Below are positions 748 to 64,000 of a DNA stretch of 64,000 bases, piece after piece (the stretch's first letter is position 1; the number at the start of each line of letters is the position of its first letter). The stretch is from a phage, in sequence record PZ445515.1, one strand, 5' to 3'. The notes beneath the pieces were generated by a model that was not told the DNA's origin, ran no database searches, and saw only the letters and a program-made list of their open reading frames with translations. The position numbers and the translations under genes are program-made.

Positions 748-1366
748 AACAATACTCCTGTGTTGGAAATAAAATAAGTTTTCTTTAGGACTATTCAGAA
801 AGAATAGAACAACTGTTACTGTCAATTTCTCAACAAATTAATCGCAAATACTGAAGGGGGGTGGCAACTTCCACTTTCACGCTGCGCTGCTGCTTTGCTA
901 TATCGCACAAATCCTTGAGGATGGCCGCTAAGCCAGATTTGCTCACCTAATGCTTCATATACTAGCTCATACTAGATGCAATATAACTTACAGAATCACG
1001 TCTCGGAGTTTTTCACTCCTCCCATCTCACTTCACAACCACCTCATACTAGGTTGCTTCGAGGCCTTACCAGGGTTCCTATGGGACGCAGATCGCTAAGT
1101 ATTCTATTAACTATTTGTTTAAAAACTAACACGTAACAGTTAAAACAACCCTTAATGGGGCAGCCTAACTGTTCCGTATCGCGGATTGTAAACAAGAAAA
1201 ATTAGCAAAATCAATTTTTACTAATGTCTCTCAATTCAATATAAATATTATATCAAGATTTTGGGCATCCTGCAAGTAAAATTTTCCGGATGGTGCTATC
1301 ATTGGTCTTGAGTACGGATAAAACCGAGCCAAAATGACTCGGTAATCAGAGTTCAGCTAATAAAAA

Positions 1367-1759
1367 TCATTCATCATTTAAGCCTGGAACATAAATCCCA
1401 ACACGGTTTAATTGTTCTTTAGCTTCTTTGAGAATATCTGGAGTGTACTCCCAAATATCATCTTCCACCTGTAAAAGATGGGGCGAACAACCATCATCCG
1501 ACACACGACATATGGCCAAACCACGTGGGTGGAACAAAGAGAAATTTAGGGCAACAATTAAACCCATAGCAGACAACTCATTCCAATCCAACTCCCATTC
1601 CCCCGCGTAGCCGGATAGGAAAACACCAACACAGGGATCATCTATTTGCTGCTCCGGAAAAGTGAAGGAGGCTTGTCTTACCCCCAACCAACGTTGTAGC
1701 AGCTTCTCCGCACGTTTCACCAAACTAGGATCAATCTGACGCCAATATACTTGTTCCAT
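1367..1759 (-). CDS. hypothetical protein, paralog of adjacent 1769-2197 gene
   Basis: 130 aa ORF; shares W-x-ELD-x-MGL-x-ALN-x-LF-x-P and C-terminal IPGL motifs with neighbour. Confidence 0.6.
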   Translation of the reverse strand: MEQVYWRQIDPSLVKRAEKLLQRWLGVRQASFTFPEQQIDDPCVGVFLSGYAGEWELDWNELSAMGLIVALNFSLFHPRGLAICRVSDDGCSPHLLQVEDDIWEYTPDILKEAKEQLNRVGIYVPGLNDE

Positions 1760-1768
1760 TCTGCCTCC

Positions 1769-2197
1769 TTAAGCAGTTAAACCTGGGATCATATACCCGA
1801 AACGTCGAAGTTTCTGAATCCCCTCATTTACTTCTTCCGGTGAGTAAGACCAACCATAACGTTCATTAACCTGAAAACCAGGAGATTCACTAGTTTTATA
1901 GTTAACAACAAGGCGATGCTTAGCAGGCATAAACAGCTTATAATTTAACGCAAAAACTAAGCCCATTTCGTCTAACTCTTTCCAGCCCACAATCTCTTCA
2001 AGACCATCCTCTACCTGCACAATTAAACCAATACAGGGGGCCTCATCAATATCATCTTTAAAAGCAAAGGAGATTTCGTTATTCTCACACCATATTTTCA
2101 AGGAGTTAATAGCCTCATTATACAGGCTAGCCGGTAGAGTACGCCAAAAGTTAACCAAAATTGGGTTAGCTTCTTTAGAGAATACATTATTGAACAT
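1769..2197 (-). CDS. hypothetical protein, paralog of adjacent 1367-1759 gene
   Basis: 142 aa ORF; tandem duplicate of upstream gene by shared motifs. Confidence 0.6.
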   Translation of the reverse strand: MFNNVFSKEANPILVNFWRTLPASLYNEAINSLKIWCENNEISFAFKDDIDEAPCIGLIVQVEDGLEEIVGWKELDEMGLVFALNYKLFMPAKHRLVVNYKTSESPGFQVNERYGWSYSPEEVNEGIQKLRRFGYMIPGLTA

Positions 2198-2199
2198 AT

Positions 2200-2706
2200 T
2201 TACACCTTAAATTGTTGTAGGGCTTTACACATTTCAAGATCTGGACTAAATTCTAGCATATAGCTAACAGCCATTAAATCTTGAAGATTTATTCCAGTTC
2301 TACCGTTGACTATAACCGTTGGATACTGGTACATCATAGCACCAGCGTCATCCAGAACACACCAATGTTTGAGCTTATGCTTTTCAACGAAGCGAAGAAC
2401 AGAATTACCCCTAGATAATCCACCCCCAGTAAAATCCGTTGTACCAAGAAAACGATCGATAAGACCTAATCCGGTCATAATCTGAACGTTCTCCATCTCA
2501 TTCCTGACAGAGAACCATGAGGATACTCCAACAATCATTATCGGAGAAGGACGAATAAAGTCCTGAAAAGCCTTGAGAAGCGGTTTGAAAACCCAATCAC
2601 TTCCAAAGAAAATCTTTTCGTCATCAGGTGCATGATGGTGGGAGATGCTCGAATTGAGCACCCCATCAATATCTAGAAAAATAATTGGAGTATTACTTAT
2701 TTCCAT
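2200..2706 (-). CDS. HAD-superfamily phosphatase-like protein
   Basis: 168 aa; HAD motif I FLDIDGVL near N-terminus and VLDDAG motif IV-like. Confidence 0.5.
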   Translation of the reverse strand: MEISNTPIIFLDIDGVLNSSISHHHAPDDEKIFFGSDWVFKPLLKAFQDFIRPSPIMIVGVSSWFSVRNEMENVQIMTGLGLIDRFLGTTDFTGGGLSRGNSVLRFVEKHKLKHWCVLDDAGAMMYQYPTVIVNGRTGINLQDLMAVSYMLEFSPDLEMCKALQQFKV

Positions 2707-2902
2707 TTTTGTTCCTTTCTAAGAACGTATCATACTCAACCGTATCAACATATATAACACCATAGTCATCGGATTTATAGTCCATCTCCCACAGCTCACA
2801 GCGATAGCACCAACTACCATCCGCCCATACAAATATATCATCGGGGTGTGTATATACAGATTTAACTATGGACATATCTGTTTCCCTTGCTTCTCGACAC
2901 AT
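2693..2902 (-). CDS. hypothetical small protein
   Basis: 69 aa ORF bridging HAD and Sir2 genes with short overlaps. Confidence 0.3.
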   Translation of the reverse strand: MCREARETDMSIVKSVYTHPDDIFVWADGSWCYRCELWEMDYKSDDYGVIYVDTVEYDTFLERNKNGNK

Positions 2903-3698
2903 AAGGTCTACCCTCTAAATGAGCTTCTACACGAGCAATAAAATCAGGGTCACTGAAAGCATCTACCGCACCTTTACTCCAGTAAGGGATACCGCGTTCC
3001 TCCAGCTGGTACATCTCACTACGAGTCATACCTTGATAGCCCGGTTCCGCTGCGAGGGCACTATCATAGTAGTTAACAACCATAAGTTTCGCAGCAGTCA
3101 AACTAAGAACAGGAAATAATTCCCAGTAGAAGTTAATTACTTGGTTAGAGCAACCAACCACAATGATCATATCTTGACTGGTAATACCATCAAAAACATT
3201 ATACATTTCTGCGTATGCAGGAGCATGCTCTCCAAAGAAGATTACATTAGGTTTAACCCATTTATAATCATCTGGATCAATAGAATTGTATCCTACATCA
3301 ATAATCCGTTTATTGCTACTATTGTAGCTATCAGCTACAACAACCTCTTTTAAATATCCGTGAATATGCAGAATGTCACTATGTGGAACGCCAGCACGCT
3401 CAATAAGGTCATCAACGTTGGTAGTCAAGTTTACTATTTGACCTGGATATTGTTTATACCATTCACCAATACGCAAATGCGCAAGATTGGGTTCAACAGT
3501 TTTTAGCTCTTCACGACGCTTGTTGTAAAACATATGGGTTTTATGATAAAAATTACCACGAAAGGCATGAATATTACATACTTCTTCTAGATCATAGTCA
3601 TCCCACAATGCTTTACCACTAGCAGTATCAGTACGGAAGGCTCGTACACCACTTTCAACACTCAAACCTGCACCACTAATAATAATTAATCTACGCAT
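2862..3698 (-). CDS. Sir2-family (sirtuin-like) NAD-binding protein
   Basis: 278 aa; N-terminal GAGLSVESGVRAFR matches sirtuin GAGIS-SGIP-FR motif, later HIHG; no Zn CxxC pairs seen. Confidence 0.6.
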   Translation of the reverse strand: MRRLIIISGAGLSVESGVRAFRTDTASGKALWDDYDLEEVCNIHAFRGNFYHKTHMFYNKRREELKTVEPNLAHLRIGEWYKQYPGQIVNLTTNVDDLIERAGVPHSDILHIHGYLKEVVVADSYNSSNKRIIDVGYNSIDPDDYKWVKPNVIFFGEHAPAYAEMYNVFDGITSQDMIIVVGCSNQVINFYWELFPVLSLTAAKLMVVNYYDSALAAEPGYQGMTRSEMYQLEERGIPYWSKGAVDAFSDPDFIARVEAHLEGRPYVSRSKGNRYVHS

Positions 3699-57163: not shown

Positions 57164-58834
57164 ATGATTATTTCCGCAGAAAAACAAACCGTTATCCTGA
57201 AAATGGCCGCTGACTTTAATTTCTATGGTAAACGTCTGCGCGCTACTAAACTGGAAGTCTGCGACGATATATCAAAAGCGGTCTACGATACAACGAAACA
57301 TTCAACCGCTATCTGCGACTGGCTGGAAGCAAATAAACCAGTTAAACCAAAAGCGGCAAAAGTAGCAAAAGCCATTAAAAACGATGAGCGCCCCGAAGCG
57401 GCGGGGATTGTTTCTAGTACCGTGGAACAGTGGGAAGTAAAACAAGGTAAACGCTTTATTATTACGTCGATTCAGAATAATACTTTCCCGCATAAAAACT
57501 TTTTAGCATCACTGGAGCAATTTGCTAAATATATCGGTGCTGATTTGCTTGTTTCTAAGTATATTTATAATAAAAACGGATTCCAAAATGGAGAAGGTGC
57601 GGATGGAATCAAATATGATTCCGCTTTTGATAAATATATTTGCAGCAAAAACGTGTTTTTAAATAACCGCCGTTTTGCTTTCATGGCTGAAATTAATGTT
57701 TTGCCAACCGCAGATTATCCGCTTTCAGGATTCGCAGAAACTGCAACCGCGCTCAATATTGAGGGGCTTGCGATTGGTCACGCTAAAATTACCGCTGAAA
57801 GTGTGCCAGCTTTAAAAGGTGAAGTAGTGCGCCGCATGTATTCAACCGGAACGGCAACCCTCAAAAACTACATTCAGCAGAAAGCAGGACAAAAAGCGGA
57901 AGCACTGCATAACTTCGGCGCGCTGATTGTTGAGTTCGACGAGGACGGGGAATTTTTTGTACGCCAGCTTGAAACAATGGACGAAAGCGGGGTGTTTTAT
58001 GATCTGAACGTTTGCGCTACTCCTGCCGGATGCTATGAAACATCGGGGCATGTTTTAGGCTTGCAATATGGCGATATTCATGCGGAAAAATTAGATGAGG
58101 AGTGCGCCGCCGCATCTTGGGGGCATGGCGATACTTATGGGCTTGTGGATATTCTTAAACCAAAATATCAGTTTGTACATGACGTGCATGATTTTACATC
58201 CCGCAACCATCATAACCGCGCATCCGGTGTATTCCTAGCAAAACAGTACGCCGCAGGACGTGATAAAGTTCTGGATGATCTTATCGACACGGGGCGCGTG
58301 CTGGAATCAATGGAACGCGATTTTAGTCAAACGATTATCGTAGAATCTAACCATGATCTAGCGTTATCCCGTTGGCTTGATGATCGTAATGCTAACATCA
58401 AGGACGATCCCGCGAACGCGGAACTATATCACCGCCTGAATGCTGCAATTTACGCGGCAATCGGTGAACACGACGAAACGTTCAACGTGCTAGATTATGC
58501 CTTGCGTAACGTCGCAGGTTGCGAGTTTAACGCCATTTTCCTGACCACTGACCAATCTTTCAAGATTGCAGGCATTGAATGCGGCGTACACGGTCACAAC
58601 GGCATTAACGGGAGCCGTGGCAATCCTAAACAATTTAAGAAATTGGGCAAGTTAAACACGGGGCATACGCATACCGCCAGTATTTACGGCGGCGTATACA
58701 CCGCTGGCGTAGCGGGTAGTCTGGATATGGGTTACAACGTTGGCGCGTCAAGCTGGACGCAAACGCATTTAATTACCTATGCAAACGGCCAGCGCACTTT
58801 GATTGACTTTAAGAATGGTAAATTCTTTGCGTAA
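57164..58834 (+). CDS. A1: pre-early protein A1-like (metallophosphatase-fold, host takeover)
   Basis: 556 aa, same length as T5 A1; GDIH, GHGD, SNHD, GHTH metallophosphatase-like motifs; followed by A2- and dmp-like genes. Confidence 0.7.
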   Translation: MIISAEKQTVILKMAADFNFYGKRLRATKLEVCDDISKAVYDTTKHSTAICDWLEANKPVKPKAAKVAKAIKNDERPEAAGIVSSTVEQWEVKQGKRFIITSIQNNTFPHKNFLASLEQFAKYIGADLLVSKYIYNKNGFQNGEGADGIKYDSAFDKYICSKNVFLNNRRFAFMAEINVLPTADYPLSGFAETATALNIEGLAIGHAKITAESVPALKGEVVRRMYSTGTATLKNYIQQKAGQKAEALHNFGALIVEFDEDGEFFVRQLETMDESGVFYDLNVCATPAGCYETSGHVLGLQYGDIHAEKLDEECAAASWGHGDTYGLVDILKPKYQFVHDVHDFTSRNHHNRASGVFLAKQYAAGRDKVLDDLIDTGRVLESMERDFSQTIIVESNHDLALSRWLDDRNANIKDDPANAELYHRLNAAIYAAIGEHDETFNVLDYALRNVAGCEFNAIFLTTDQSFKIAGIECGVHGHNGINGSRGNPKQFKKLGKLNTGHTHTASIYGGVYTAGVAGSLDMGYNVGASSWTQTHLITYANGQRTLIDFKNGKFFA

Positions 58835-58888
58835 TTAAATTATTCCCCTAGCGGCTTGAAATATAGCCGCCATTACAGGAGTCAAAAA

Positions 58889-59146
58889 ATGAAAGTTACA
58901 TTACCCAAAACATTGGACGAAAAAGCATTCATTTCACCGGATGAAATGGAATCCGATAAAGTTTACAGCTTCGGGCCTATCCTAGCCGCCAAAACTAATA
59001 CGGATGGCATTATTTCCATCGATTATCGTGATAATGATGTTGTTCCTTTTGATGACGATGGCGCTTTTTATGAGTGGCTAAGCGATAATAATTTACCCGT
59101 AAACGGTGAATTAACGCCGTACCAGATGCAAATTATTATCAAATAA
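58889..59146 (+). CDS. hypothetical protein
   Basis: 85 aa from ATG 58889 after ACAGGAG. Confidence 0.5.
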   Translation: MKVTLPKTLDEKAFISPDEMESDKVYSFGPILAAKTNTDGIISIDYRDNDVVPFDDDGAFYEWLSDNNLPVNGELTPYQMQIIIK

Positions 59147-59185
59147 ATTAAACCCCCTTATTAAACTAATTGGAGTTTTATAAAT

Positions 59186-59578
59186 ATGAAAAAGCAAAAT
59201 ATTCCATTCGATCGCGCTCAATCCTCAATTGTTCTGGTTTATTCTAATGGCGAACGTTACCACGTCGAGGCGGGGCACGTTATTGATGAATTGTTAGATT
59301 TCAATGACGCCTTGCAGGTTACAACATTTGCATATATGCAGGGCAAACTAACCAGCCATATTAAAGCAAAAGGCGTTTATGTTGACACGATGAAACAAGA
59401 AACAATCATTATTGACGCGGTAAAATCTGGTCTAGCCTTTGCAGTTGTCGCGCCTTGCCCCGCTTGCCTTGATGATCAATTGATCAGTGCAAAAGTATAT
59501 ACTTGTGCGGGGATTCGTTCCAGCGTATCAGGTGAAGATGTTAGTTTTATCGCTGATGCGTTGGCTTATGGTCTTTAA
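59186..59578 (+). CDS. A2: pre-early protein A2-like
   Basis: 130 aa ORF immediately downstream of A1-like gene, as in T5. Confidence 0.5.
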   Translation: MKKQNIPFDRAQSSIVLVYSNGERYHVEAGHVIDELLDFNDALQVTTFAYMQGKLTSHIKAKGVYVDTMKQETIIIDAVKSGLAFAVVAPCPACLDDQLISAKVYTCAGIRSSVSGEDVSFIADALAYGL

Positions 59579-59657
59579 TAGTTGATTTATTATTACCCGC
59601 TTATAAATAGCGGGTAATGCTGAATTAATCTAATCCCTTAAATGGAGAACGTAACAA

Positions 59658-60392
59658 ATGAATAAAGCTATTATGAATATTTCCCGCAGCTTCCCGCATA
59701 TTTCCCGCGTCATGATTTGGGATTTAGACGGCACTATCGTTAATTCTTTCCATCGTGTAGCGCCTTGCTTTGATAATGAGGGCAATTTAGATTTAAATAA
59801 GTATAAGAATGAAGCGTGTAAACATCATTTAATAATGCAGGATACTTTATTACCATTGGTTGAATACATGCGCCAGTGCATGAATGACGCAAATACTTTA
59901 AACATTATTTGCACCGCTCGACTAATGAGCAAGTCGGACTATTATTATTTGCGCAAACAAGGCTTGCGCGGTCGTGGTAATAGTAATATCCGCGTGTTTT
60001 CCCGTGATACACTGCATAAATATTTTGAGGCTGATAAAGTTAGCGAAATATACCACAGCAAGGACGCAGTATATAAATCTTATTATTTTGAATTATTTAA
60101 ACAACTATATCCGAACGCTGATTTTACAATGATTGATGATCATAAAGGCGTGCTATCGGCGGCGGCATCATACGGATTTAAAACGCTGGACGCGCAAGCC
60201 GTTAACGATATTCTATCAATCGGCGTGGCATTAATAGGTGAAACCTTTATTGATGAATCCCTCGATGATGATAATGATTATCAATTCCTAGCTGACCGTT
60301 TGAAATTATGTTGGGAAGGTATGACCGAGGAAGAACGCGCAGAATATAGTTGCAGCCCGCAACAATATATTGAGAAATTAAAAGTTGCGTAA
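59658..60392 (+). CDS. dmp: 5'-deoxyribonucleotidase (HAD family)
   Basis: 244 aa; HAD motif I IWDLDGT and later DD motif; position next to A1/A2. Confidence 0.65.
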   Translation: MNKAIMNISRSFPHISRVMIWDLDGTIVNSFHRVAPCFDNEGNLDLNKYKNEACKHHLIMQDTLLPLVEYMRQCMNDANTLNIICTARLMSKSDYYYLRKQGLRGRGNSNIRVFSRDTLHKYFEADKVSEIYHSKDAVYKSYYFELFKQLYPNADFTMIDDHKGVLSAAASYGFKTLDAQAVNDILSIGVALIGETFIDESLDDDNDYQFLADRLKLCWEGMTEEERAEYSCSPQQYIEKLKVA

Positions 60393-60409
60393 TAATTAAA
60401 GTTAAAATA

Positions 60410-60446
60410 GTTTCATCCTGCAATTAAAATGGTTGCAGGATGAAAC
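60410..60446. terminator. bidirectional hairpin terminator
   Basis: 14-bp stem gtttcatcctgcaa/ttgcaggatgaaac between convergent dmp and minus-strand operon; T-run on minus side. Confidence 0.6.
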
Positions 60447-60556
60447 AGTTACCCTGCTAATAGTAACGGGGGTGGCGGTTAGCAGACTAAGTATTCTCCC
60501 CCAACCCACTGGACACACCTCCATGTGTAATCTTATGAAATTTGGCAAAAGTCAAA

Positions 60557-60802
60557 TTAGCGCATAGAATGGTCATCAAACCTGTGTTCTGGTCTGAACT
60601 CACGGAATCTCTTCCGCGACGCCCGAGATCCGTCCGACCACTCCCGCTCAAACTCCGCACGTTTCTCGTCAAACTTCCGCTCCCTTTCCGCAATCTCCCG
60701 CGATACTTCCGCAATATATTTACGATGCTTGTTGATTGCCGCAGTTGTCCCGAAAACTCCCGCAAGTATCCCGATAATAAAAGCAATTACAATACTAAAC
60801 AT
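60557..60802 (-). CDS. hypothetical membrane-anchored protein
   Basis: 81 aa, N-terminal TM then charged tail. Confidence 0.5.
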   Translation of the reverse strand: MFSIVIAFIIGILAGVFGTTAAINKHRKYIAEVSREIAERERKFDEKRAEFEREWSDGSRASRKRFREFRPEHRFDDHSMR

Positions 60803-60989
60803 CTAATTCCCTCTCAATTTGCAGAATACGGGTGCTATCACAACGTTGCAGTAGTACTAACTTTTCTAGAATAACTTGTTGTTGTTTCACCTGAGCTTCT
60901 AGAGTTTTTAGGCGGAGATACACGATACGAGAGACAATGAGGATTACCCAGACTAATATTACTATTAGTGTAATTCCCACTTCCATCAT
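60795..60989 (-). CDS. hypothetical membrane protein
   Basis: 64 aa, N-terminal TM. Confidence 0.45.
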   Translation of the reverse strand: MMEVGITLIVILVWVILIVSRIVYLRLKTLEAQVKQQQVILEKLVLLQRCDSTRILQIERELDV

Positions 60990-61093
60990 TTACGTTTCTC
61001 CGATAGTAAGGTTTCGATTCTAGCTAAGTGATTATCTAAAATACATTGTCCAATAATCACAATCCCCAGTAATGCAATAATTACCCATTCCAT
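60986..61093 (-). CDS. hypothetical small membrane peptide
   Basis: 35 aa hydrophobic ORF, ATGA-type overlaps both sides. Confidence 0.3.
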   Translation of the reverse strand: MEWVIIALLGIVIIGQCILDNHLARIETLLSEKRK

Positions 61094-61221
61094 TAAATCC
61101 ACCCCGCCATAGCTGCTAACCAAAAACCTACGAAAATAAAGAATAAGATAGTTCCGAATCCAAAACTATTTATCCAGCTATCATATACCTCTCCACGTCT
61201 GGTCTTTCTTTTATTTGACAT
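61093..61221 (-). CDS. hypothetical small membrane peptide
   Basis: 42 aa ORF, basic N-terminus then TM. Confidence 0.3.
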   Translation of the reverse strand: MSNKRKTRRGEVYDSWINSFGFGTILFFIFVGFWLAAMAGWI

Positions 61222-61398
61222 ATCTTTCTTGCTCCAATAAATATGATATTTTAAATTATTTTATAATTTGTGCATAACCAACCATGCTTGTGACTTCCTA
61301 GAAGGACTTCTACTTTTCTTACATAGTGGTTTCTGCCAATATACCATCCAAAAAATAAAAAATTTAGTTTACTTGGATGTCTTTTTGCTTTATACTAA

Positions 61399-61665
61399 TT
61401 ACAGGTAGTTAGATTGCTCTAGTTTAAATTTACAATCACCATATTTAAGGTCAAACTGACTGAGATCCCACCATCCAAACTTAGTACGGAGCTGTACTAC
61501 TGGGAAGCGATCTCCCTTAATACGAACTTTTTGAACCTTGAGGCCGTAATGTTCTTCTCCCGCACCACCAAAAGATTTTACAAATCCAGTACAAAATGGT
61601 TTGGGAGCAGGTGCACAACCAGATAACATAACTGCGGCAACTAGTGCAATCACAAACTTTTTCAT
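61399..61665 (-). CDS. llp: Llp-like lipoprotein (receptor-blocking superinfection-exclusion candidate)
   Basis: 88 aa; signal peptide with lipobox LSGC; divergently adjacent to pb5-like gene as in T5 llp/oad. Confidence 0.6.
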   Translation of the reverse strand: MKKFVIALVAAVMLSGCAPAPKPFCTGFVKSFGGAGEEHYGLKVQKVRIKGDRFPVVQLRTKFGWWDLSQFDLKYGDCKFKLEQSNYL

Positions 61666-61750
61666 ATTTATCTCTCCATTTCTAATTTATGAGTATATTA
61701 TAGCAAAATAGAGAGATGAAAGCAAATACATTTTTATAATAGGAGATTAT

Positions 61751-63508
61751 ATGGGTTTTTTCGCTGGAAAATATAGCGATGGTAAGACCGTACTATCTTT
61801 AAATACTGAATCTGGTGGTGACATTAACCGTCACTATAGTCCAAATAATAATAGTATTTTTCATAGTGATATGCCATTTGTCCTAGTTGATGGTACCTAT
61901 GAGGCGGGACTAGGTAATGCTGGCAACGGCTTTTTTGTATGTCAAATGCCCGCTGACATAATAAATATTAAATCTAATGATCCTGGTAGAGTTATACTAA
62001 CTGCTATTGAGATAAATGGTACTCACAGAGCTTTTCTTAATGGTACTCAGAGTAAGGTAGGTCAAACTATAGTTGCTACTCAGGCAGATCCTTTTAGATC
62101 TTTTGCTAGCGTTTCCCAGACTAGTGGATTTGCATTTGGTAATAGCCTGGCATCCGGGACTTATAATTATAACCCATCTATAGGACATGAAGAATCTATC
62201 TCTAGAAATGGTACTGGTGGAACTACCCTACATAGTACTTATCATGGTATAGTTAGGCCAGGTGCAGGAGCTCCAGTAGGTATTACTGTTGCAGAGGCCT
62301 TTGCACAGTTAGGATTCCCTACTAATAGTAGTACAGTACCTATAGATGGTAATAACCAATATTACTGGGACCCGGGATGGATGTCTCCTTTAGGGTCAGC
62401 ACACAGAGGGCACGATTGGTTTTATGTTTGTAACTCTAACATACGTGGGTATGGTGGGGTAAGACAAGGTCTTCCTGGTAGTGTAAATACTATGTACCAC
62501 GATGGGGGTAACAGATTTGTTTGCAGGGGTTCTACAACTAATTTAGCTAACCAATCTGGTAACGCTACAATATTACAGGATTGGTATAACATAACTCCTA
62601 CTAAAGTTATTTGGTACGTTTTGAATTTAAGATACTCAAATGGTGGTATGAGTATCTCTGGTAATCCTTTTACGGGTTCAGATATTCTTATATCTCCTTC
62701 TAATTTCATAATTAAAGGGGTTAGTCTTCCCAATACGGGTTATAAGTTTATTAATCAGAACGCTTTCGGTAACTTAGGTTATAGACCAGATATGGAATAC
62801 ATTGGAAATAACGCAGCATACACTGGGGCCTTTGGGGATACCACTGCAAGATGTGAACTTGTAGGTTCTAGTAATGGGAGTTTATGGTCTCCTGTGGACT
62901 ACGGAGGGGCTAAGTCTCAAATTAGTATTTACAAATTCGGAGCTGGTAAGCAATGGTACGTAAACTCTAATGATAATACTATCGGTAATGAACACGGGGT
63001 TGTTTGGGGGCCTTCAGCAGTTCCACTACGACTTTTTAGCGGAAATGTTGGTAGTTCTTACATGGGGGATGATATTACTCCCAGCTATCCAGGAACTGGA
63101 GATAGATACGTTGGTTTATCAACTATTGGGCTAGGTATACCGAGTGGCAATGCTACAGTAATTCTTACCACTGAAGTTATATCAGGTAACCTTAACTGTG
63201 CAGGTGTTCCTGCTAATACATGGAATAACGGTGTGTTTCAAGTGCAAGGAAGAAGAGCATATAGTTATAGTAATGGAGACGCGATATTCCACCAGATTTT
63301 AACATTACCAGTAGGGTATTTAGTACCTTTTCATACTACATCTGCTTTTAGATACACACCTAACAATGCCCTAAGTAGAAATAGTTTTATATATACTGCT
63401 AAAAATCTAGGAAATGGAAATGTAGAGTTAGGGGTAGTTATGCACGTAAGTTTAGGTAGCGCAGTTTTCCTACCTAGACTAAGAGTAACAGTTCAACGCC
63501 TTACCTAA
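61751..63508 (+). CDS. oad: receptor-binding tail protein pb5-like
   Basis: 585 aa, G/N/S/T-rich; AGGAG RBS; paired with llp-like lipoprotein gene. Confidence 0.55.
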
Positions 63509-63518
63509 AGGAGGAAAT

Positions 63519-64000
63519 ATGGCAAATGATGTATTAGTACCAGATCTTATGTCCCCTGAAGGGATGGATGTAATTGAAGCTTATTTACAGTGTGGGAGTG
63601 ATGTGCCTTCTGCCGCACGTAGTCTTGGAATGTCAGAAACTGCTTTTCGAGATATTATGAATCGTAGTGAAGTTAAGAATTACTTGAACGATATTTTTAT
63701 GGAGAGTGGATTCCGTAACAGAGATCGTTTGTTTGGTGTTCTAGATGAAGTTATTAAACGTAAGCTGGAGGAACTGGAAGAAACTGGCATGGGTTCTGAC
63801 CAGGATATTATGGATATTCTCTGGAAAGCACATAAAATGAAAATGGAAGAAATGAAAATGATGGTAGAACTGGAAAAAGTAAAGGCAGCAGCCCGTACTC
63901 CCGCTAACCAGACCAATATCCAGAATAACATTATTGCTGGAGCTGGGGATCAAAACTACATGGACTTAATTACTTCCCTGGCTACTGGAGGTAAGAAGTA
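63519..64000 (+). CDS. HTH DNA-binding protein, possible terminase small subunit (partial, runs off window)
   Basis: N-terminal HTH-like segment [16 protein letters not shown]; RBS AGGAGG; no stop in window. Confidence 0.35.

Follow-up and report, generated by a model that had tools for sequence, protein, structure and literature searches.

Gene organization of the locus

Two divergently oriented genes lie at the locus, one (llp) for a small lipoprotein and the other for a 585-aa receptor-binding protein (RBP), and their coordinates in the window (the whole 64,000 nt stretch of phage DNA that was analysed) are given in Table 1, along with those of the associated features. A preliminary description had reported an 88-aa lipoprotein gene transcribed away from a 585-aa gene; its coordinates are exact, and the spacer is 85 bp long. 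It had also likened the pair to llp and oad of phage T5, and this arrangement was recovered, with homology to T5 pb5 over the full length of RBP and a slot between llp and terS, as in T5. The pair is ordinary and already described, being the cassette for host recognition in a T5-like phage (Tequintavirus). The DNA of the window, and with it the llp/RBP region, is 100% identical to that of Escherichia phage T5_ev212 (LR597659), where the same two genes carry the annotations "receptor-blocking protein" and "receptor binding protein". Both ORFs are genuine genes and chance ORFs are excluded; homologue records among phages number about 400 for the lipoprotein and about 540 for RBP, and in both genes by far the most differences from close relatives are synonymous.

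Table 1. Positions of genes, protein regions and expression signals at the llp-RBP locus, in window coordinates.
Feature	Position	Strand	Basis
Four small ORFs (81, 64, 45 and 42 aa) between llp and the terminal-repeat boundary	60557..61221	-	ORF list
llp, 88-aa precursor of a putative receptor-blocking (superinfection exclusion) outer-membrane lipoprotein	61399..61665	-	ORF and homology
Signal peptide (residues 1-16) and lipobox LSGC (residues 14-17)	61615..61665	-	LPAM_1, sequence
Intergenic control region, 85 bp, divergent	61666..61750		Read from sequence
Shine-Dalgarno GGAGAG, 6 nt 5' of the llp ATG	61672..61677	-	Read from sequence
Candidate sigma-70 llp promoter (-35 TTGCTT, 17-nt spacer, extended -10 TGcTATAAT)	61697..61725	-	Relaxed manual scan
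Shine-Dalgarno AGGAG, 5 nt 5' of the RBP ATG	61741..61745	+	Read from sequence
Receptor-binding tail-tip protein, pb5/Oad/Hrs homologue, 585 aa, 'AKFV33-type' BtuB-class allele	61751..63508	+	Homology
Main hypervariable region of RBP, aa 101-275, including T5 L1/L2 equivalents	62051..62575	+	Binned identity
Second variable region of RBP, aa 476-550, including T5 L4 equivalent	63176..63400	+	Alignment
Terminase small subunit gene (terS), runs past the window end	63519..64000	+	T5_ev212 annotation, sequence

Divergent from llp and directly upstream of terS/terL, the RBP gene is in the position expected for a Markadamsvirinae genome. Since terS is co-directional and begins 10 nt past the RBP stop codon, RBP appears to head the late terS/terL block. 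The order small ORFs-llp-RBP-terS-terL is common to T5, BF23, DT57C, SPC35, SPLA5b and Cit2, and the T5 homologues of the four small ORFs (T5.159-T5.162) are annotated as single-transmembrane proteins. The module had been placed directly at the terminal-repeat junction, which does not hold: the boundary given in the BF23 and SPC35 records falls at 60514-60515 of the window, 884 bp past the llp stop codon, and the four small ORFs lie between. In a DNA comparison with T5, no similarity was detectable from about 61257 to 63491, the flanks being 89-95% identical, and homology to T5 resumes at 63492 with 95% identity. Identity to the four compared BtuB-type relatives is back to 96-97% at 63500.

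The spacer between the two genes is 93-99% identical to those of BF23, DT57C, SPC35 and SPLA5b, and is partially conserved even in T5. A consensus match within it is a candidate promoter that may drive llp. Its -10 element (TGnTATAAT) is conserved in BF23, DT57C, SPC35 and T5, and the BF23 and T5 records have putative promoters annotated at the equivalent position. A stricter consensus scan for promoters and terminators found nothing in the 85 bp, nor any excess over shuffled sequence; it missed the candidate llp promoter because the -35 hexamer matches at only three of six positions. No convincing intrinsic terminator was found downstream of llp.

The receptor-binding protein and its variable regions

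RBP matches phrog_4815 across residues 1-585 (E = 3.7e-274) and the solved structures of T5 pb5 (PDB 8b14_B and 8a8c_B; E = 5e-50), while Pfam and NCBIfam searches returned no family. The pb5-family similarity anticipated in the preliminary description is therefore present, the length of 640 aa that it gave for T5 pb5 is correct, making RBP 55 aa shorter, and the richness in G, N, S and T that it remarked on is real (39.5% in total, against 21-25% in two neighbouring proteins). In T5, pb5 is found at the tail tip, and DNA ejection is triggered when it binds a TonB-dependent transporter (PMC9586334); by homology, RBP would occupy the same place and trigger ejection in the same way.

Sequence divergence within RBP is concentrated in two regions. 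Over aa 101-275, binned identity to BF23 and SPC35 is mostly 28-50%, with a conserved island at aa 126-150 (72%), and to DT57C it is 48-88%. Using the receptor-inserting loops defined for T5 pb5 (PMC9586334), the tip of L1 (Gln115) aligns with residue 114 of RBP and the tip of L2 (Phe170) with residue 168. In the second region, 7 aa that are present in BF23 and SPC35 are deleted, and T5 L4 (residues 570-590) corresponds to about residues 530-540. In these alignments, loops L1, L2 and L4 of T5 thus coincide with the patches of high variability.

The hypervariable segment is shared by about 105 phages at 94% identity or more. Over the full length, the RBP of SPLA5b, also 585 aa, shows 96.9% identity, differing by 18 substitutions and by no indels; the two genes differ at 140 synonymous and 18 non-synonymous sites, and the substitutions within the variable region include residues 153, 178, 198, 203, 216, 244, 271 and 272. 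Mosaicism is also evident, as aa 1-100 and 326-400 resemble SPC35 and Bas34, not DT57C, and llp is separated from the main part of the RBP gene by a recombination breakpoint. A breakpoint of the same kind has been proposed for DT57C (PMC4728585).

Receptor class

By sequence, RBP groups with the BtuB-verified class (BF23, DT57C, SPC35, EPS7, phiR2-01 and SPLA5b), apart from the FhuA and FepA classes. Its identity to the RBPs of BF23, DT57C, SPC35 and phiR2-01, all experimentally BtuB-dependent (PMC8624392, PMC4728585), is 57-73.5%, compared with about 35% globally, or 28-30% by tblastn, for those of T5 (FhuA) and H8 (FepA). In the alignment to the pb5 proteins of T5, BF23 and DT57C proposed in the preliminary description, the values are about 35%, 68.2% and 73.5%, respectively. 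As in the BtuB class, RBP is paired with a BF23-type Llp (100% identical). Infection evidence comes from SPLA5b, which carries the same allele: plating of this phage is lost on btuB deletion and btuB is a TraDIS susceptibility gene (PMC10949491), the receptor in those experiments being Salmonella BtuB and not E. coli BtuB. The window RBP thus almost certainly binds BtuB and not FhuA, in keeping with the earlier suggestion that its receptor might differ from that of T5. AKM_ECS is also experimentally BtuB-dependent, but it carries a different Epseptimavirus RBP allele (69.5% identical) and so supports the class assignment only.

Two database leads were set aside. The phage named 'vB_SenS_S124' (RBP 71.8% identical) is not the FepA phage S124 but another one, whose RBP and Llp are both of BF23 type; the true FepA reference is H8, with an RBP only 28-35% identical to that of the window, and the draft H8 record showed no lipoprotein gene beside its RBP gene. 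The host deletion reported for JLBYU40 was considered as a possible fhuA deletion, but it is pstSCAB-phoU and uninformative on the receptor.

The low identity of aa 101-275 to BF23 and SPC35, and the breakpoint between llp and the RBP gene body, could be taken to mean that diverged loops have switched RBP to FepA or another TonB-dependent transporter, leaving the lipoprotein as a leftover from a BtuB-using ancestor. We consider this very unlikely. DT57C has diverged similarly from BF23 and yet uses BtuB (PMC4728585), SPLA5b with this very allele is BtuB-dependent (PMC10949491), and the FepA binder H8 is far more distant, at the identity given above. Differences between llp and its relatives fall almost wholly at synonymous sites, and the gene is under purifying selection in all lineages with the 585-aa RBP allele, which is unexpected for a useless remnant.

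A smaller chance still is given to RBP binding FhuA like T5 pb5, with the BtuB-type lipoprotein 'decoupled' from it. RBP is a pb5 homologue, and FhuA has appeared in print for the same allele twice: gp108 of fp01 was docked onto FhuA (PMC9961651), and FhuA was inferred for Cit2 (PMC12980165). Both are in silico assignments, and neither paper contains a receptor experiment. They apparently assign FhuA because "T5_ev212/ev219" was taken for T5. The Cit2 RBP is 96.9% identical to that of T5_ev212, but its identity to genuine T5 pb5 (NC_005859, 640 aa) is no more than 30.6-36.2%, and since the '96.9% identity to T5' of the Cit2 paper could be reproduced against T5_ev212 alone, its 'T5' comparator was apparently mislabelled. 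The argument for fp01 leans on similarity to 'T5_ev219', whereas the paper's own figure against real T5 pb5 is 31% (PMC9961651). Two further points speak against FhuA: SPLA5b, whose RBP is a 96.9%-identical version of this allele, depends on btuB, and the neighbouring lipoprotein has the same sequence as the BtuB-blocking protein of BF23.

The lipoprotein Llp

The llp product begins with MKKFVIALVAAVMLSGC. Its lipobox is encoded at 61615-61626, with Cys17 as the predicted lipidated residue, and the LPAM_1 match in Pfam scores 23.9 bits (cut-off, 20 bits). Predicted mature Llp has 72 aa, a mass of about 8.3 kDa and a pI of 9.3. The residue at +2 is Ala, and sorting to the outer membrane would be expected because there is no Asp at this position. 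Apart from the lipoprotein signal, Pfam and NCBIfam searches detected no family.

Llp is 100% identical to the 'receptor blocking protein' of BF23 (WLW40760), the two genes differing by eight synonymous and no non-synonymous changes, and 98.9% identical to the Llp of DT57C. Its proposed likeness to T5 Llp holds, although only remotely. Both proteins match phrog_1119 (E = 1.8e-26 for the window Llp, covering profile positions 1-78 of 78; E = 1.1e-19 for T5 Llp), and hhalign related them with 90% probability (E = 1.5e-6), the aligned part taking in the signal peptide, but global identity is about 28% and their similarity was not detectable by pairwise comparison. Searches of the PDB with Llp, by sequence and by profile, matched no solved structure, T5 Llp included, and a single-sequence AlphaFold model of the mature protein (pLDDT 47.8) was too poor for a fold search. 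The cysteines of mature Llp are at positions 1, 9 and 62, in parallel with 1, 11 and 58 in T5 Llp, where Cys11 and Cys58 form an intramolecular disulfide (PMC9586334). Cys9 and Cys62 are invariant in every BtuB-type Llp examined, and they are placed such that they may form a T5-like disulfide.

When DT57C llp was expressed, DT57C-type phages and BF23 plated more than 100-fold less efficiently and T5 was unaffected, and the BF23 protein has likewise been reported to block the receptor of its own phage (PMC4728585). Going by this literature on near-identical proteins, the window Llp probably blocks BtuB, the receptor of its own phage. That it is instead a generic Cor-type excluder acting on the receptor of other phages (FhuA, as with Cor of phi80, N15 and T1), an idea that owes its appeal to the name 'Cor superinfection exclusion protein' of the best PHROG match and of RefSeq records, is barely credible, as the PHROG name is a family label only and T5 Llp matches the same PHROG, the NCBIfam Cor equivalog (NF047972) scores 15.8 bits against a cut-off of 31 and aligns with residues 1-35 only (the signal-peptide region), so that Llp does not file as a lambda-type Cor equivalog, and the DT57C protein excluded BF23-type phages with no effect on FhuA-dependent T5.

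Proposed mode of action

Taken as a whole, it is highly likely in our judgement that RBP at the fibre tip binds BtuB and that the paired Llp blocks BtuB after infection. RBP would sit at the end of the central tail fibre and bind irreversibly to BtuB, the TonB-dependent vitamin B12 transporter, which would trigger DNA ejection. Its variable patches, as counterparts of the T5 pb5 loops that are pushed into the receptor lumen, may mediate this binding. Transcription of llp would proceed divergently from a sigma-70-type promoter, presumably early. After export and lipidation at Cys17, Llp would be delivered to the outer membrane's inner leaflet. By binding BtuB there, it could close this receptor to phages of the same class, which would prevent superinfection and keep progeny from being lost to cell debris. 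As T5 Llp does with FhuA, it most likely blocks the receptor from the periplasm, with the plug jammed and the extracellular loops folded inward; periplasmic plug-jamming has been shown for T5 Llp and FhuA only (PMC9586334).

The loops or epitopes with which the 585-aa allele contacts BtuB may differ from those used by BF23 and SPC35, with the invariant Llp still excluding all of these phages by acting on the conserved periplasmic plug. This is put forward tentatively, as something we rather doubt. If true, a btuB missense mutation that confers resistance to one allele should leave the host sensitive to the other, and the locus would represent a natural arms race fought only on the outer side of a single receptor, from which the exclusion protein is decoupled.

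An RBP and a receptor-blocking lipoprotein are textbook T5-like phage biology, and GenBank already annotates these very genes as such. What is useful in practice is the receptor assignment of the 585-aa allele, where the evidence favours BtuB. The allele is carried by about 100 sequenced phages of Escherichia, Salmonella, Shigella and Citrobacter that have been proposed for biocontrol, and the assignment bears on cocktail design, in which shared receptors and Llp cross-exclusion are to be avoided.

Comparison with known systems

The hrs(oad)-llp module of BF23 is like that of the window in gene order, orientation, the 85-bp control region and its slot near the right terminal repeat. Its Llp is the identical protein and its RBP belongs to the same class, but is a different allele (595 versus 585 aa, 68.2% identity, with 3-aa and 7-aa indels). 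This module and its BtuB receptor go back to Mondigler et al. (1996, 2006), as related in PMC4728585 and PMC10644984. The window's own 585-aa allele is found in SPLA5b and Cit2, each 96.9% identical over the full length and with the same Llp type, and in AKFV33 and fp01, which are 98.3-98.9% identical in the variable segment. Isolation hosts differ; SPLA5b is a Salmonella phage and AKFV33 an E. coli phage.

In DT57C and DT571/2, which use BtuB (Golomidova et al. 2016, PMC4728585), a near-invariant llp lies beside a mosaic, divergent RBP gene, as in the window. Among relatives studied by experiment, DT57C comes closest in the RBP variable loops (48-88%), and its RBP is 73.5% identical overall. 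The oad (pb5)-llp module of T5 (8b14, 8a8c; PMC9586334) shares the architecture, the genomic position and full-length RBP homology. T5 Llp is also like the window Llp in its phrog_1119 match, parallel lipobox and cysteines, and presumably in its action. T5 differs in the low identity of its RBP (about 30-35%) and Llp (about 28%), and in having FhuA rather than BtuB as its receptor. More distant are the Cor proteins of T1, phi80, N15 and lambdoid phages, the exclusion activity of which is described in PMC9586334. As is predicted for the window Llp, these are small outer-membrane lipoproteins that inactivate a TonB-dependent transporter, and they carry the same PHROG label, but they differ in their target, FhuA, and in genomic context.

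The llp and receptor-binding protein genes

The two ORFs of the preliminary description, a lipoprotein gene (llp) and a divergent gene for a receptor-binding protein (RBP), were both recovered with unchanged coordinates, and are separated by 85 bp. Gly, Asn, Ser and Thr make up 39.5% of the RBP, compared to 21–25% of the neighbouring A1 and dmp proteins. Across window positions 61200-63700 the DNA matches Escherichia phage T5_ev212 (LR597659, Tequintavirus) at 100% identity; this phage stems from a survey of coliphages in the infant gut (PMC6969025). In that record, the terS, terL and portal genes come after the pair, which is labelled "receptor-blocking protein" and "receptor binding protein", so the finding is already annotated in the public record. 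Short ORFs within or antisense to the RBP gene (61997-62188, -; 62422-62733, -; 62970-63134, +) or overlapping the 3' end of llp (61268-61408, +) are annotated in no related record, and are most likely spurious.

Features of the llp-RBP region and adjacent repeat (window positions)
Feature	Position	Strand	Description
A1	57164-58834		556 aa, pre-early
Two further ORFs			96 and 130 aa, pre-early; A2-region ORF in the 57164-60392 block
dmp 5'-deoxynucleotidase	59658-60392		244 aa, pre-early
Four small ORFs	60557-61221	-	81, 64, 45 and 42 aa; between llp and repeat boundary
llp	61399-61665	-	88 aa, begins MKKFVIALVAAVMLSGC; Shine-Dalgarno GGAGAG (read from sequence)
Candidate llp promoter	61725 to 61697	-	-35 TTGCTT, 17-nt spacer, extended -10 TGcTATAAT; relaxed scan
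RBP ORF	61751-63508	+	585 aa; Shine-Dalgarno AGGAG (read from sequence)

Receptor class of the RBP

The proposed membership of the pb5 family is borne out by a whole-length match to PHROG 4815, "receptor binding tail protein" (E = 3.7e-274), and by matches to the solved T5 pb5 chains 8b14_B and 8a8c_B (E = 5e-50). In T5-like phages, RBPs divide into three deep classes. The window protein is only about 35% (global alignment) or 28–30% (tblastn) identical to T5 pb5 (640 aa, FhuA) and the H8 RBP (637 aa, FepA), while its identity to the RBPs of BF23, DT57C, SPC35, Bas34 and phiR2-01 is 68.2%, 73.5%, 73.3%, 70.5% and 57.0%, respectively. BtuB is the reported receptor of BF23, DT57C, SPC35, EPS7 and phiR2-01 (PMC8624392; PMC4728585; PMC8594841). 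The decisive link to BtuB comes from Salmonella phage SPLA5b, whose 585 aa RBP is 96.9% identical (18 substitutions, no indels) and for which btuB was the TraDIS susceptibility gene and its deletion abolished plaques (PMC10949491). The doubt raised previously about FhuA as receptor was thus well placed.

The 585 aa allele was first described, without a receptor assignment, in the AKFV33 paper (PMC3326045), and two later papers assigned it to FhuA. For fp01, the case consisted of 95.6% identity to "T5_ev219" and docking onto FhuA; the same paper gives just 31% identity to the real T5 pb5, and nowhere mentions BtuB (PMC9961651). For Cit2, a figure of 96.9% identity to "T5 (NC_005859)" was published (PMC12980165). 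We find the Cit2 RBP (L011, the Cit2 sequence, 1294-3051) to be 96.9% identical to the T5_ev212 RBP of the window; with the pb5 of NC_005859 (L012, 4428-6350) it shares only 30.6% identity when counted over alignment length, or 36.2% over aligned pairs. The remaining figures of that paper were matched exactly using alignment-length identities (SPC35 71.8%, BF23 66.8%, DT57C 73.2%). To judge from these values, a "T5_ev..." protein evidently served as comparator, which makes the published "decoupling" of RBP from Llp a probable artefact. The names T5_ev212 and T5_ev219 seem to have been mistaken for T5.

The lipoprotein Llp

The llp product has an LSGC lipobox at residues 14-17, scores 23.9 bits against Pfam LPAM_1 (cut-off 20 bits), and falls short of the curated model for lambda-type Cor. 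Its identity is 100% to the "receptor blocking protein" of BF23 and to the Llp of Bas34 and Cit2, 98.9% to those of DT57C (a single residue differs) and SPC35, and 67% and 52% to those of EPS7 and phiR2-01. Expression of DT57C llp lowered the plating of DT57C-type phages and BF23 more than 100-fold and left T5 unchanged (Golomidova et al., PMC4728585), and blocking of BtuB by BF23 Llp was reported by Mondigler et al. (2006; cited in PMC4728585).

Older papers term the BF23 and T5 lipoproteins non-homologous. In pairwise comparison this is correct, as global identity between the window and T5 proteins is 28%, and a tblastn search with the window Llp returned no T5-type matches. We nevertheless regard the two as probable remote homologues, because both match phrog_1119 over their full length (E = 1.8e-26 and 1.1e-19, respectively), hhalign gives a probability of 90%, and Cys1, Cys9 and Cys62 of the mature window protein parallel Cys1, Cys11 and Cys58 of T5 Llp, in which Cys11 and Cys58 form a disulfide (PMC9586334). 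In the draft of FepA-dependent H8 (AC171169; L010, 34700-37500), no recognisable lipoprotein ORF was seen divergently upstream of the 637 aa RBP, and tblastn with window-type and T5-type Llp gave no match in the RBP-bearing half of the genome.

Mosaic structure

The DNA of llp and the spacer is 92–99% identical to SPLA5b, SPC35, BF23 and DT57C. Within the RBP ORF, identity falls to 50–75% as far as about 63450, starting near 61800 against BF23 and DT57C and near 62000 against SPC35, and returns to 96–97% at the RBP stop codon and terS. Compared to T5, there is no detectable DNA similarity from about 61257 to 63491, and the flanks are 89–95% identical. The RBP is a mosaic protein: residues 1-100 and 326-400 (window 61751-62050 and 62726-62950) show 96–100% identity to both SPC35 and Bas34. 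Residues 101-275 and 476-575 resemble DT57C more (48–88%) and are mostly very unlike BF23 and SPC35. Such SPC35/Bas34-like segments in an otherwise unlike protein indicate recombination breakpoints inside the RBP gene, besides one between llp and RBP.

The length difference between 585 and 595 aa forms is due to indels of 3 and 7 aa. Variation is greatest at residues 107-117, 165-207, 238-257, 487-493 and 535-540, patches that cover positions aligned to loops L1 (Gln115), L2 (Phe170) and L4 (570-590) of T5 pb5, the loops that enter the FhuA lumen (PMC9586334). The differences in llp are almost all at synonymous sites. Taken together, variable loops and a near-invariant Llp suggest a simple picture in which recombination diversifies the loops of the RBP, which would be turned towards the variable extracellular face of BtuB, and in which Llp targets a conserved portion of the receptor and remains unchanged.

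Transcription and the terminal repeat

A consensus promoter scan of the llp-RBP spacer found none. The -10 element of the candidate from the relaxed scan is kept in BF23, DT57C, SPC35 and even T5, and putative promoters are annotated at the corresponding spot in the BF23 and T5 records. By analogy, this candidate would be consistent with early expression, as reported for T5 llp (Decker et al., 1994, according to a citing source). The RBP gene is probably part of a late transcription unit, since terS, with terL next, begins 10 nt past it.

The module had been placed directly at the terminal-repeat junction. It is indeed the final functional cassette ahead of the repeat, yet the boundary lies 884 bp away: the annotated right boundaries of BF23 and SPC35 correspond to 60515 and 60514. 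That of DT57C corresponds to 60392, so that the DT57C record disagrees with the other two by about 120 bp. Positions 60400-60499, on the edge of the repeat, are G-rich and vary locally, with only 54% identity to SPLA5b. To the left are the pre-early (first-step-transfer) genes of the repeat (57164-60392), which are 85–90% identical to those of BF23, DT57C, SPC35 and T5. The T5 homologues of the four small ORFs (T5.159-T5.162) are annotated as single-transmembrane proteins. This segment is plastic, with about 60800-61000 missing in SPC35 and a homing endonuclease inserted in Bas34. LR597659 ends (position 108546) at window 60692, inside the 81 aa ORF (60557-60802, which it annotates as partial), at a distance of 177 bp from the homologue of the repeat boundary; the window spans this cut. 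Ending mid-ORF near the boundary, the record is an arbitrarily cut, collapsed-repeat assembly, its ends not being physical ones.

Proposed mechanism and comparison with known systems

On the account with the best support, the tail-tip RBP would bind BtuB and trigger ejection. Llp, made early, would be lipidated at Cys17 and, having no Asp at +2, be sorted to the outer membrane, where it would inactivate BtuB, excluding BtuB-dependent superinfection and protecting progeny. T5 Llp sits on the periplasmic face of FhuA, trapping a non-native plug and folding EL7/EL8 over the pb5 site (PMC9586334); given the remote homology and identical genetics, a similar mode of action may extend to BtuB. The preliminary observation is confirmed, and its interpretation as an llp/RBP pair is supported. 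The module is a known, already annotated BtuB-type RBP/Llp cassette, for which experiments have been made on identical or near-identical proteins, and all that is gained is that the receptor of a widely distributed RBP allele can be assigned more clearly.
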